Virus record (IMG/VR): IMGVR_UViG_2830687482_000006
Coordinates: 11,083 to 75,082 of that record
Direction: 5' to 3' (one strand)
Source of the DNA: a virus
Lineage: Duplodnaviria > Caudoviricetes
Length of the DNA stretch: 64,000 nt
Part shown: one piece after another, positions 11,029 to 54,014 of the stretch
Position numbering within the stretch: the first letter of the stretch is position 1
Layout of the letters: the number at the start of each line of letters is the position of its first letter
Translations under genes and position numbers: made by a program
Notes under the pieces: model-generated
Seen by the model: the letters and a program-made list of their open reading frames with translations, nothing else
Told to the model about the DNA's origin: nothing
Databases searched by the model: none

Positions 11029-11324
11029 TAGGTAACGTGTTCAATCACCCAAGCAAGAACATCATCTATTTCGTAGATGCTGATACCCATCTCTTCTACG
11101 GGAATCAAATCTTTTGAATCCTCAATAGGCTTTTTATAATTACTCAAAAGCCTGCGTAGGATCAAATCTCTGGTATCTTGACTAGTCATAATAGAGGCAA
11201 TCGCTTCGTCGGGCGTACCCACAAAGCGAAGAATGTCGTTAAAAATAACATAAGTCATACGAATAGGTTCTTCCCGTCCGGTGACTTTAATCTCTTCTTC
11301 GGGTCTTTCAAGCTTATCGGCCAC
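10920..11324 (-). CDS. Tail assembly chaperone (gpG-like)
   Basis: 134 aa, GTG start, next to the major tail gene; contains TAT TTT TTT (YFF) slippery site. Confidence 0.7.
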   Translation of the reverse strand: MADKLERPEEEIKVTGREEPIRMTYVIFNDILRFVGTPDEAIASIMTSQDTRDLILRRLLSNYKKPIEDSKDLIPVEEMGISIYEIDDVLAWVIEHVTYFFMSQAEKLQKRMKKYPEQAKKMMSSDRSETGTPV

Positions 11325-50781: not shown

Positions 50782-50862
50782 TGGACCCCCAGACAGGATT
50801 CGAACCTGCATTTTCATCCAGTTATCCGTTTCTTGGTTCGTAGCCAAGGGGAATACTGAGGG
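50782..50862 (-). tRNA. D-armless tRNA-Arg(ACG)-like RNA with enlarged variable region
   Basis: CCCTCAG-TATTCCC-CTTGG-CTACGAA-CCAAG-AAACGGATAACTGGATGAAAAT-GCAGG-TTCGAAT-CCTGT-CTGGGGG-T-CCA. Confidence 0.8.
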
Positions 50863-50863
50863 A

Positions 50864-50938
50864 TGGTAGTCCGTGAGAATTATGCTATCCCGACCTTCCC
50901 CTTGTAAGGGGGACGCTCTACTTCTGAGCTAACGGACC
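50864..50938 (-). tRNA. tRNA-Val(UAC) with non-canonical T-loop
   Basis: TCCCC-CTTACAA-GGGGA; T-loop AGCATAA. Confidence 0.88.
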
Positions 50939-51500: not shown

Positions 51501-51577
51501 TGGTGAACGGCCCTAGACTTGAACTCGGAACCCCCGACTTAAAAGGACGGTGCTCTAACCTATTGAGCTAGCCGTTC
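51501..51577 (-). tRNA. tRNA-Lys(UUU)
   Basis: GAACGGC/GCCGTTC acceptor, CCGTC-CTTTTAA-GTCGG (U30-U40 mismatch). Confidence 0.9.
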
Positions 51578-51889
51578 ACGAATAAAAGCACCTTTGGTGC
51601 TGAAAAAACCATAACGATGCTTGGCTTGCTCTGCCCTAGCAAACGCACCGAGCAGAGTTTCTCTTGAATATGTTTCGGGACTCCATTGACCTTCTAGACC
51701 ATAACAGGAACAATGTCCACCTGAAACATAATAGTATGTGTCTCCATTTCTATACAGAACATCAGCACTACCATCGCAACCATAAGCTTCATGATCATAC
51801 TGAGCATATAGAACCTCATCTGGTTCTGGGTCGTTCATCGCAAATTCTCTTTGAACATCTCCCCAATTACTGAACAGATCATAATACAT
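51560..51889 (-). CDS. Conserved-looking phage hypothetical protein with HCSCYG motif
   Basis: RBS AGGAG; VLYAQY...G.A.V...GGHCSCYGLEGQW.PE. Confidence 0.6.
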   Translation of the reverse strand: MYYDLFSNWGDVQREFAMNDPEPDEVLYAQYDHEAYGCDGSADVLYRNGDTYYYVSGGHCSCYGLEGQWSPETYSRETLLGAFARAEQAKHRYGFFSTKGAFIRERLAQ

Positions 51890-51906: not shown

Positions 51907-51984
51907 TGGTGCGCCTAGTAGGACTCGAACCTACAACCTACCGATTAGAAGTCGGCAACTCTATTCCAGTTGAGCTATAGGCGC
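51907..51984 (-). tRNA. tRNA-Arg(UCU)
   Basis: Canonical cloverleaf, CTTCTAA loop. Confidence 0.95.
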
Positions 51985-51991
51985 AAAAACT

Positions 51992-52232
51992 ATGGCCCGT
52001 TCTGTTCCACGGTGGGCCAAGCCGGTGTCAAGAGCAGTTAAGCTGCGAGACGAAGTGCCATTTCTGGCTGGTTATCATTGACAGTTATCAATGTTGATCT
52101 TTTAAGGTAATCACACCTACAACCTCACACTAGCTTATCCCGTCAGTCGATACCCTTTCACCCCCATTATGGTGGAGGTGGGCGCACTCGAAGCGCCGTC
52201 CTGTCCGTATTCACTAGTGGTCAGCGATTGTT
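51992..52232 (-). ncRNA. ssrA: Circularly permuted (two-piece) tmRNA; tag (A)VNDNQPEMALRLAA*
   Basis: Acceptor piece ends CACCTCC-A-CCA (52170), 4-nt spacer TAAT, coding piece starts GGGGGTG (52165) with G3-U70. Tag ORF at 52082-52038; terminal GGCCCACCGTGGAACAGAACGGGCC hairpin. The 5' boundary is approximate. Confidence 0.92.
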
Positions 52233-52352
52233 CCTCAAAACTTCCTGCATAAACTTCTTAAAGTCGGCATCACTTCCGGTTCCTTTGCCTAAATTAGCAG
52301 CGGTGCAAACAAATTGCACATTTCCTTCTCCGCTGTCAACAGATAGTTTCAC
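52221..52352 (-). pseudogene. HNH/His-Me endonuclease remnant
   Basis: VKLSVDSGEGNVQFVCTAANLGK...: S.D...GNVQFV...N..K motif with the RIDSSKGY-type segment missing. Confidence 0.45.
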
Positions 52353-52911
52353 TCACCATATCCGTGAAGTTTAGATCAACCCCTAAAATCCACTTATGTG
52401 AAGGATACCTTGGAACCCAACGAGAAAACCTATGAACACTGCTAGCCAGCGCCAGTGGTGATTCTGATCTTATCAGGCGAAAAACCTTATCATCATGATC
52501 TTCCAAATAGCCCTTGCTTCTTTCCAAGTATTTTCCATTAAAAGAAATTTGACAAAGACCATAATCGAATCTCTGAGTTATATATTGAATACTCCAATTC
52601 ACAAAAATTAGTTGGATTGGGGGAAGTCCTTCAACATCCATATTAGTCACTAATATAATTTCTCTCATAGATTCAGGATACCAAGCATCGGTATCATTTT
52701 GCTCAGGTTCTTTTCCCCCTAATAATTTGTTAAGGGCTGTAGCTTCACTTTCTGAGCCACAAGCTACAAAGAAATCTAAATCTTTTACATCTAGGCCATG
52801 ATCTAAATCTCTTAAAGACCCTCCAGCAAGAACTACTTTAGAATGAATAGTTTGAAACTTAAGTAGAAGATCGACCCATTCTTTTGGAATGTCTTTTTCG
52901 GTAATCATCAC
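52336..52911 (-). CDS. tRNA nucleotidyltransferase/poly(A) polymerase head-domain protein
   Basis: LAGGSLRD...KDLDFF and RFDYGLCQI motifs; adjacent to the tRNA array. Confidence 0.8.
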   Translation of the reverse strand: MMITEKDIPKEWVDLLLKFQTIHSKVVLAGGSLRDLDHGLDVKDLDFFVACGSESEATALNKLLGGKEPEQNDTDAWYPESMREIILVTNMDVEGLPPIQLIFVNWSIQYITQRFDYGLCQISFNGKYLERSKGYLEDHDDKVFRLIRSESPLALASSVHRFSRWVPRYPSHKWILGVDLNFTDMVSETIC

Positions 52912-54014
52912 ACATCCCTTTCTCCGTCATACAAAGCAATAACAATACCAAATCGAGGAACACCGTCTGGTGTAAGTTCAAAATAACGAACGGTAGCAGT
53001 TTGAAAAGATTTTCCTATTAAACTTTCTGCATATTCCATTGTGCCTTTCAAGCCTGCACCAAATTCCTTACCATTTTTTGCTTTACAAACTACAGATTTA
53101 ACCTTTCCAGACCAGTTTCCTATACCTTCTTCTAAAGAGAGAACGGGGAACTCATCTTCAAGGAAATCCTTACGCTTAAGGAGATTTTTGCTTCTTTTTT
53201 GTTCATAGGGAGTATCCAGACGTAGCATTGAACCTTCATAACCTGCTGCCACACAGGCACCATGGAAGGTGTTGAAGCGTTCTGAATCTTCGGGCTTACC
53301 CTCAAAGGCGACGGTTTCAACTTTCCAAATACAGCTCTCTTCGGACAAATATTGAAGAGACTGGTTAGCATAAGCAATTCGTATCGAGAAACGTCGGTCG
53401 GCCTTAGAAGGACAATCATATACATGATATTGCACTAGTCGGCCAGATTCGGCCAGTTCTTCTTCCGAAGGGTCTTGCTTTTTGCAAAGAGACATAAGCT
53501 TAGGAAAATCATCTTTCAATTCATGATTGTAAAGTTCTCCATCAAGAATTAGGTTTGGGTCAGTTTCAAAAGCTGGTTTCAAGGCCTCATAAATGTGAGG
53601 ACACCCCAAAATAGCCTTACCCTGCCTAGAAAACAAACCTTGTCGAGTCGCAATACAGCGCATTCCATCGAGCTTTGGTTGAGCATAGACTGTCTGCCAA
53701 AGAGGAAAGCCGGAGTATTCTTTTGCCAGCATAGGTTTGAAGAAATGTGCTCCACTTTGAGCCGCCTCTGTTGATTTGTGATATTCTCTAGTCAACTTAT
53801 GTTCATATTTTGAGGCCACTTCTAATTTAGCTTGATCTTCTGGACTAGTTTCATTTGCTTTACCGATGTTTTTGGCTTTTGCTTGAGTCCATTCTGAAAA
53901 AACCTCTACCCCTCCGGCTACTCCTGCCGCAGTCCGGTAACGAGAACCATCAATCTCCATTCGCCAAGTTCTTAAACCACCTTTAGTGTCATATTTGTAA
54001 AGTGTATCAGTCAT
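52908..54014 (-). CDS. ATP-dependent DNA ligase
   Basis: QPKLDGMRC, LDGELY, YHVYD, EGSMLR, LLKRK, OB-domain PRF. Confidence 0.95.
   Translation of the reverse strand: MTDTLYKYDTKGGLRTWRMEIDGSRYRTAAGVAGGVEVFSEWTQAKAKNIGKANETSPEDQAKLEVASKYEHKLTREYHKSTEAAQSGAHFFKPMLAKEYSGFPLWQTVYAQPKLDGMRCIATRQGLFSRQGKAILGCPHIYEALKPAFETDPNLILDGELYNHELKDDFPKLMSLCKKQDPSEEELAESGRLVQYHVYDCPSKADRRFSIRIAYANQSLQYLSEESCIWKVETVAFEGKPEDSERFNTFHGACVAAGYEGSMLRLDTPYEQKRSKNLLKRKDFLEDEFPVLSLEEGIGNWSGKVKSVVCKAKNGKEFGAGLKGTMEYAESLIGKSFQTATVRYFELTPDGVPRFGIVIALYDGERDV

Follow-up and report, generated by a model that had tools for sequence, protein, structure and literature searches.

In the Caulobacter crescentus type of ssrA (Rfam RF01849 and RF04321), the gene is arranged as an acceptor piece, its CCA end, a spacer and the coding piece, an order that recurs at the locus described here. 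Such genes are also carried by phages. In the genomes of cultured phages, Buchholz et al. found 53 distinct two-piece forms (PMC9004378), and tmRNA genes have also been reported in Bradyrhizobium phages (PMC12656738) and in Sphingobium phage Lacusarx (PMC5648845), whose gene is annotated as ssrA. A resume codon for valine has likewise been described: the SsrA of Helicobacter pylori natively uses GUA, and E. coli SsrA carrying GUA or GUC at this position was reported to be functional at some cost (PMC2862035). The same paper also cites breakage of the tag after the GUA-encoded valine and poor competitive fitness.

We analysed a 64,000-nucleotide stretch of viral DNA (Caudoviricetes), positions 11,083 to 75,082 of IMG/VR record IMGVR_UViG_2830687482_000006, hereafter the window. 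An initial annotation, made from the letters alone, had described a phage-encoded two-piece tmRNA in it, with a valine resume codon and a spacer of four nucleotides.

Identification, subtype and anatomy of the tmRNA gene

By Rfam covariance model, RF04321 (tmRNA_permuted) matched positions 52038-52232 on the minus strand with 100.7 bits (E 2e-18). The alignment spans the full model (1-213), and its score exceeds the gathering score of 47 bits and is as high as those of two other phage tmRNAs, which reach 107 bits in Roseobacter phage DSS3P8 and 94.4 bits in a related uncultured phage. ARAGORN called a permuted tmRNA at the same locus, with the tag VNDNQPEMALRLAA; its span, 51947-52262, is wider than that of Rfam and overlaps a tRNA-Arg gene (51907-51984), an overlap that is a boundary artefact. 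The limits given in the initial annotation, 51992-52232, agree with where the Rfam model begins and the 3' hairpin stops. Direct reading of the minus strand bore out the permuted order, the encoded CCA, the 4-nt spacer and the G3-U70 pair that had been noted, with CCA at 52172-52170, UAAU at 52169-52166, G1 at 52165 and the tag frame at 52082-52038. The features of the locus, all on the minus strand, are as follows.

52336-52911, minus: nucleotidyltransferase-like ORF of 191 aa, upstream of the tmRNA (PHROG 1614, E 2e-15; no Pfam match)
52170-52232, minus: acceptor piece (Rfam RF04321 alignment and helix check; ARAGORN extends the 5' end to 52262)
52232-52201, minus: helix P2, 5' strands (Rfam alignment)
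52197-52181, minus: T-arm, with a 5-bp stem GGCGC/GCGCC (5/5 pairs) and a 7-nt loop UUCGAGU
52180-52174, minus: 3' acceptor strand CACCUCC (direct reading)
52173 and 52172-52170, minus: A73 and CCA (direct reading)
52166-52169, minus: intervening spacer UAAU, with U at -1 (direct reading)
51985-52165, minus: coding piece, D-loop analogue included (Rfam, ARAGORN and sequence; 3' limit from the tRNA-Arg start at 51984)
52165-52159, minus: 5' acceptor strand G1-G7, GGGGGUG (direct reading)
52146-52118, minus: helix P2, 3' strands (Rfam alignment)
52095-52118, minus: candidate pseudoknot PK1, with stem AGGU/ACCU and a loop UGAUU that pairs with downstream GAUCA
52038-52082, minus: tag frame, with GUC at 52082-52080, fourteen sense codons encoding VNDNQPEMALRLAA, and the stop codon UAA at 52040-52038
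51993-52019, minus: 3'-terminal hairpin, with a 6-bp stem UGGCCC/GGGCCA and loop ACCGUGGAACAGAAC, followed by AUAG and five U
51907-51984, minus: tRNA-Arg(UCU), starting 53 nt past the tag stop codon (ARAGORN; Rfam tRNA model 67.2 bits)

The acceptor stem forms all seven of its pairs, with G3 (52163) opposite U70 (52176), and is followed by A73 and CCA. The alanine identity elements are thus complete, and charging with alanine is predicted. Helix P2 comprises 13 canonical pairs out of 15 in the Rfam alignment, the other two being non-canonical; a minimum-energy cofold of both pieces recovered the T-arm and a precursor acceptor hairpin and not P2, and is uninformative. The candidate PK1 ends 12 nt upstream of the resume codon; its first stem is aligned by Rfam and its second (UGAUU/GAUCA) was drawn by eye. 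The T-loop, UUCGAGU, is unlike the GGCNGNA type found in most members of the viral clade described below. The 3' hairpin, by comparison, is present in 9/9 members of that clade, where its stem covaries and AACAG is conserved in its loop. The same hairpin occurs in the bacterial alpha tmRNAs examined and in the Rfam alpha_tmRNA consensus at its 3' end, where the model treats it as unpaired.

The subtype is ambiguous by the older Rfam models. Both programs detect the two-piece tmRNA that had been proposed, with RF04321 as the Rfam match, whereas RF01849 (alpha_tmRNA) is not among the Rfam matches listed for the window and does not place the gene in the alpha subtype. The best clan model was beta_tmRNA (RF01850), at 61.3 bits, below the family cut-off of 84 and hence short of a beta assignment. 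When this model was run on sampled Pseudomonadota genomes, 36/151 gave sub-threshold matches scoring 40-72 bits, and in no genome was the cut-off attained; Amylibacter, a named alphaproteobacterium, scored 40.1 bits. Because sub-threshold beta scores are this widespread, Amylibacter included, we take the match in the window to be a cross-hit. The xNDN start of the tag, the loop of the 3' hairpin and the tree point to the alpha type, and the T-loop is of the general type. The gene is a genuine and intact permuted tmRNA encoded by the phage, probably functional and of alpha type. A blastn search of 50,697 phage records with the tmRNA gave no match, and an exact 28-mer from the T-arm and acceptor had 0 matches in IMG/VR.

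Valine resume codon, tag and viral relatives

The resume codon GUC is preceded by AUAACU, and the frame closes with CUC GCA GCU UAA, that is, with LAA and a stop codon. Rfam aligns GUC to the codon that reads GCA in its consensus, and the next three codons are AAU GAU AAC in the window and AAC GAU AAC in the consensus. Because of this alignment, the valine assignment has homology behind it as well as the ARAGORN heuristic, and the GUC codon and LAA end reported at the outset held up. We rejected a sequencing error at the resume codon, as the same GUC occurs in independent contigs and in two cultured phages.

Valine is uncommon at this position. Among 62 ARAGORN-called tags from viral contigs sharing the acceptor stem, the first residue was Ala in 59, Gly in 2, Thr in 1 and Val in 0. 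A GUC resume codon in a permuted tmRNA was found in 1 genome of 301 sampled from the Alphaproteobacteria, with the tag VNDNKTFANSNVAPVALAA; this tmRNA (L238; G155:C24, about 70.2-70.6 kb) is chromosomal and belongs to a genome of ~1.6 Mb. Its valine codon probably had an independent origin, since it falls outside the viral group in our tree. No tag of the form VNDN...RLAA was found in the genomes searched. The coding pattern V-N-D-N-Q-P returned 15 loci from species-representative genomes and 26 from JGI metagenomes, none of them a tmRNA; we rejected all of these as protein-coding chance matches. The valine resume codon is best described as rare but not new.

A degenerate search with the tag identified one other viral contig (L160), carrying a permuted tmRNA with GUC and the tag VNDNQPVMALRLAA. 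Its virion RNA polymerase identifies this contig as a genome fragment from an N4-like podovirus, unrelated to the phage of the window. A broader pattern search added further viral contigs with a GUC resume codon, with the tags VNDNDEVLRLAA, VNDNDEGTALRLAA, VNDNEVVEMRLAA and VNDNDVVVASEEIRLAA. One GUC-bearing viral contig led to the cultured phages vB_EliS-L02, XM05 and Lacusarx, and the tmRNA of L234 gave no match when compared with cultured phages.

Between the window and L160, the tag coding sequences are identical at 38/45 nt (84%), with five synonymous codon differences and one replacement, while the RNA outside the tag is 57-62% identical. The tag is probably translated, since its differences are mostly synonymous whereas the remaining RNA has diverged more. 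This pattern bears on the proposal that the RNA is a decoy, binding host SmpB and mainly inhibiting or competing with host trans-translation, on the model of the tRNA-like-domain-only RNA of mycobacteriophage DS6A. The tRNA-like domain is indeed the best-conserved part of the window gene. A six-frame search found no smpB on the 75-kb phage contig, in agreement with the initial annotation, so the RNA must use the host pool; the assembly as a whole holds one SmpB copy, on another contig (C49). A phage tmRNA reduced to its tRNA-like domain has been reported to inhibit E. coli tmRNA (PMC4131195, PMC11915505), and the authors of the Lacusarx study suggested that the tmRNA of their phage counteracts host tagging (PMC5648845). 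However, the complete tag frame, the resume-codon context and the stop codon are all retained here, and a tag that differs from that of L160 by five synonymous changes and one replacement would be unneeded by a pure decoy. We consider a decoy role very improbable and favour a tmRNA that tags.

We built a maximum-likelihood tree from 23 coding pieces. The window groups with L160 (support 95/93), and both fall in a nine-member group (support 94/92) that is entirely viral, includes XM05, vB_EliS-L02 and Lacusarx, and adjoins bacterial alphaproteobacterial tmRNAs. The terminal branch of the window is long (0.64). Every member of the group forms the full acceptor stem (7/7), the full T-stem (5/5) and the 3' hairpin, and the stems of the T-arm and the 3' hairpin show compensatory changes. 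The tags of the clade have the form VNDN...RLAA, and it has been seen to date in a Seuss-like siphovirus, in an N4-like podovirus and in CbK-like siphoviruses. We tentatively suggest, as a possibility that we would not yet put at even odds, that the valine-resume tmRNAs of this form are a lineage kept and exchanged among unrelated alphaproteobacterial phages, not recaptured from hosts, with a phage-specific tag distinct from that of the host. If so, rescued proteins would receive a phage-specific tag, possibly with altered adaptor recognition or product fate, and the gene in the window would be a member of that lineage that was also reduced to a near-minimal spacer of 4 nt.

Spacer, neighbourhood and predicted maturation

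Spacers across the window's own clade measure 59-131 nt, which makes that of the window an outlier. Beyond the clade, we examined 92 distinct viral permuted tmRNA sequences from IMG/VR that share the acceptor stem. The spacer is 3-8 nt long in 19 of these and 3-5 nt in 5, so 4 nt is the short extreme of a known range. RNase P prefers U at -1, and the window's spacer ends in U; nearly all of the 19 short spacers end in AU, and 37/92 spacers end in T.

These counts weigh on whether the gene might be an inactive passenger, formerly functional and now decaying in an AT-richer phage, with the 4-nt spacer as a deletion that blocks processing. Its terminal branch of 0.64, the far longer spacers elsewhere in the clade, the two non-canonical P2 pairs and a T-loop unlike that of most clade members could all be read in this way. 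Yet every identity and structural element is intact, the Rfam score is as high as those of the DSS3P8 and related uncultured phage tmRNAs, and short spacers recur independently in viral tmRNAs that otherwise look intact and, in many cases, share the terminal U. Decay is thus very unlikely, and the favoured reading remains a working gene with a very short spacer.

Two further observations concern viral spacers. One family of viral permuted tmRNAs (IMG/VR L026, L052, L068, L075 and others) has 8-nt spacers of the sequence AAAUAUAU and, ~55-60 nt upstream of the CCA end, the motif TATAAATA, reminiscent of a late promoter of T4 type; the region upstream of the window's tmRNA lacks it. In an uncultured IMG/VR relative of the phage (G002), the spacer is 88 nt long and contains a T-arm-like segment (L158 1540-1650; stem GCAGG/CCUGC, loop UUCAAUU), which may be a remnant of a tRNA-like element.

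This relative shares 74% identity in the capsid protein and 69% in the ligase, and carries a tmRNA at the same locus. The order of ligase, nucleotidyltransferase-like ORF, tmRNA and tRNAs is common to the window (52336-54014 locus) and G002 (L159 6554-9157); in the latter, the nucleotidyltransferase match is split in two pieces. Its tmRNA allele, by comparison, has an alpha-type T-loop, the 88-nt spacer, the tag ANDNDMPVMKMAIAA and a GCA resume codon. The locus is therefore conserved between the two phages, with the tmRNA allele itself replaced or strongly diverged.

Searches around the gene found no sigma-70-like promoter directly upstream of the tmRNA, the sole minus-strand candidate being weak (9/12) and inside the upstream ORF, and no riboswitch near it at Rfam thresholds. 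Just past the stop codon of the nucleotidyltransferase-like ORF and ~65 nt ahead of the tmRNA, positions 52295-52332 (minus strand) can form a nested hairpin with an outer stem CAGCGG/CCGCUG and an inner stem GUGCAA/UUGCAC, which might act in termination, in attenuation or as a signal for processing. Farther along, Rfam reports two tRNA-like genes missed by ARAGORN, at 50785-50862 (29.5 bits, barely at the cut-off) and 50867-50938 (47.3 bits). A word search of sequencing runs listed no RNA run and two DNA runs, the latter with small shares of 0.11 and 0.09 that have no bearing on habitat or expression.

By analogy with the established bacterial two-piece tmRNA, we infer the following course for transcription, cleavage, charging, tagging and phage benefit. 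The gene would be transcribed leftward, along with the tRNA array and the adjoining genes for the ligase and the nucleotidyltransferase. Host RNase P would cut 5' of G1 (52165) and 5' of the tRNA-Arg, the second cut setting the limit of the tmRNA precursor, and would so release an acceptor piece of at least ~63 nt and a coding piece of ~170-180 nt. The UAAU trailer would be trimmed to CCA by 3' exonucleases, as with tRNA trailers, and the two pieces would be held together by the 7-bp acceptor stem and helix P2. Host AlaRS would charge the RNA by way of G3-U70 and A73, and host SmpB and EF-Tu would bring it to ribosomes stalled on broken mRNAs. Translation would then resume at GUC, adding A-VNDNQPEMALRLAA, and the LAA end would mark the product for ClpXP-type proteolysis. 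From the sequence and structural anatomy, the place in a virus-only clade and the codon-level conservation of the tag, we hold it to be probable that the locus is a functional phage-encoded permuted alpha-type ssrA, matured and used with host factors. Most likely, the phage would gain extra ribosome-rescue capacity in infection, beside its own tRNAs and RNA-repair enzymes; a role in replacing a cleaved or cell-cycle-degraded host tmRNA, or in retuning tagging, is speculation.

Phage, host and relation to known tmRNAs

The window belongs to a contig of 75,082 bp (G000:C559), the longest of 580 contigs in a 4.35-Mb assembly. Its terminase and major capsid protein are 40.5% and 49.7% identical, respectively, to those of Caulobacter phage Seuss, which is the nearest cultured phage by capsid protein. 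More distant capsid and terminase relatives infect Achromobacter, Xylophilus, Pseudoalteromonas and Acinetobacter (beta- and gammaproteobacteria), and the nearest matches of its rIIA/rIIB are in roseophages. The contig also encodes a DNA ligase, an RNA-ligase-like gene, helicases and ~15 tRNA genes. The phage context claimed in the initial annotation is confirmed by the terminase, the capsid protein, rIIA/rIIB and the tRNA array, and the contig is that of a Seuss-like siphophage.

For a temperate phage, the gene could be an attP copy of a host tmRNA gene. Temperate phages and genomic islands often integrate at tmRNA genes (PMC4383910, PMC9004378), and a small ORF at 51560-51889 has a PHROG match labelled integrase (E 2e-16). 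This ORF, however, is just 109 aa long, lacks a Pfam match and has a best PHROG of unknown function, and the gene is more than a 3' fragment, with both halves and the tag frame complete. We judged rIIA/rIIB, the large tRNA array and the nearest cultured relatives, Seuss and JWF, more typical of a lytic phage. A six-frame search found no tyrosine integrase on the contig, on which ground we rejected the attP reading as exceedingly improbable.

The assembly that holds the contig is cyanobacterial, with 11 phycobilisome matches. Its own tmRNA, on another contig, is one-piece, with the tag ANNIVPFARKTVLATA; the tag start ANNIVPFARK of this one-piece RNA is what we take to be the cyanobacterial type. 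The phage contig has a G+C content of 42.3% where the bin averages 48.8%, which places it under the bin's 1st percentile. In tetranucleotide composition it correlates with the bin mean at 0.559, and the lowest value among 53 other large contigs is 0.725. Because it is an outlier in both G+C and tetranucleotide composition, the contig was probably mis-binned with the cyanobacterium, and the analysis flags it as such.

It could nevertheless be that the phage infects the binned cyanobacterium, the alpha-type two-piece gene then being foreign to a host with a one-piece tmRNA. The contig does sit in that assembly, with its phycobilisome matches and one-piece tmRNA, and a mismatch of tmRNA type between phage and host has been published for the OM43 phage Melnitz (PMC9004378). 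We regard a cyanobacterial host as unlikely: it is opposed by the contig's G+C and tetranucleotide outlier status, by the lack of any short spacer-like match of the phage contig elsewhere in the assembly, and by capsid, terminase and rIIA relatives that infect Proteobacteria. An alphaproteobacterial host, as the initial annotation had suggested, is our best guess, at somewhat better than even chances, because the tmRNA groups with alpha-type tmRNAs and those of Erythrobacter and Sphingobium phages, and because Seuss is a cultured relative. The suggestion is thus plausible on the tmRNA grouping and the Seuss capsid match, with the cyanobacterial bin and the beta- and gammaproteobacterial relatives against it.

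Among cultured phages, the Erythrobacter phages vB_EliS-L02 (tag VNDNDVVVARDEVRLAA) and XM05 (tag VNDNDVVETPMALAA) share the GUC resume codon with the window. Lacusarx, with the tag ANDNDVVTAEVRLAA, shares the RLAA end and a nearly identical 3' hairpin, and its resume codon is GCC (Ala). Unlike the window's phage, all three are CbK-like siphoviruses of 130-152 kb and ~60% G+C, and their tmRNAs differ from that of the window in their spacers of 74-94 nt and alpha-type T-loops. The two-piece tmRNAs of vB_EliS-L02 (L242, OL955261.1, about 75.7-76.2 kb) and XM05 (L241, PV416404.1, about 149.8-150.2 kb) are unannotated; in XM05, a 'hypothetical protein' is annotated over the gene on the opposite strand, and the vB_EliS-L02 paper makes no mention of a tmRNA. 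The permuted tmRNA of DSS3P8 (L015, KT870145.1 9093-9391; ARAGORN tag ANINNAPMEMAIAA; the RF04321 match of 107 bits cited above) is likewise unannotated in GenBank.

Phages Melnitz (Methylophilales), HTVC008M and Mosig (Pelagibacter) also carry, like the window, a permuted ssrA of alphaproteobacterial type (PMC9004378). These are T4-like myophages, and in some of them the gene is linked to a glutamine riboswitch; near the window's gene, no riboswitch scored above the Rfam thresholds. The SsrA of H. pylori resembles the window's in its valine resume codon, although that codon is GUA, and differs in being one-piece, chromosomal, of an unrelated lineage and with another tag end. Relative to the bacterial alpha two-piece tmRNA, the likeness extends to the G3-U70/A73 stem, P2, the xNDN...LAA tag and the 3' hairpin with its AACAGAA-type loop. 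The window's gene differs in being phage-carried, in having the general T-loop UUCGAGU and not the alpha-specific GGCNGUA, in a spacer of 4 nt against tens of bases in the consensus, and in using GUC, not GCN.

None of the flagged features is unprecedented. The rarity implied by the initial annotation did not hold, as precedents exist for two-piece tmRNAs in phages, for valine at the resume codon and for spacers this short (PMC9004378, PMC2862035 and this survey). The valine resume codon emerges as a stable, recurrent trait of a clade seen solely in viruses, two cultured Erythrobacter phages included, and the pattern of synonymous change offers comparative evidence that phage tmRNA tags are translated. 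The tolerance of phage tmRNAs for spacers of 3-5 nt sets bounds on what RNase P and 3' trimming need, and the window gene could serve as a compact natural template for studies of two-piece tmRNA maturation. Set against the known systems, the gene adds one well-preserved example to the phage-borne two-piece tmRNAs already described, its small added value being a virus-only valine-resume clade common to unrelated phage types and an extremely short spacer.
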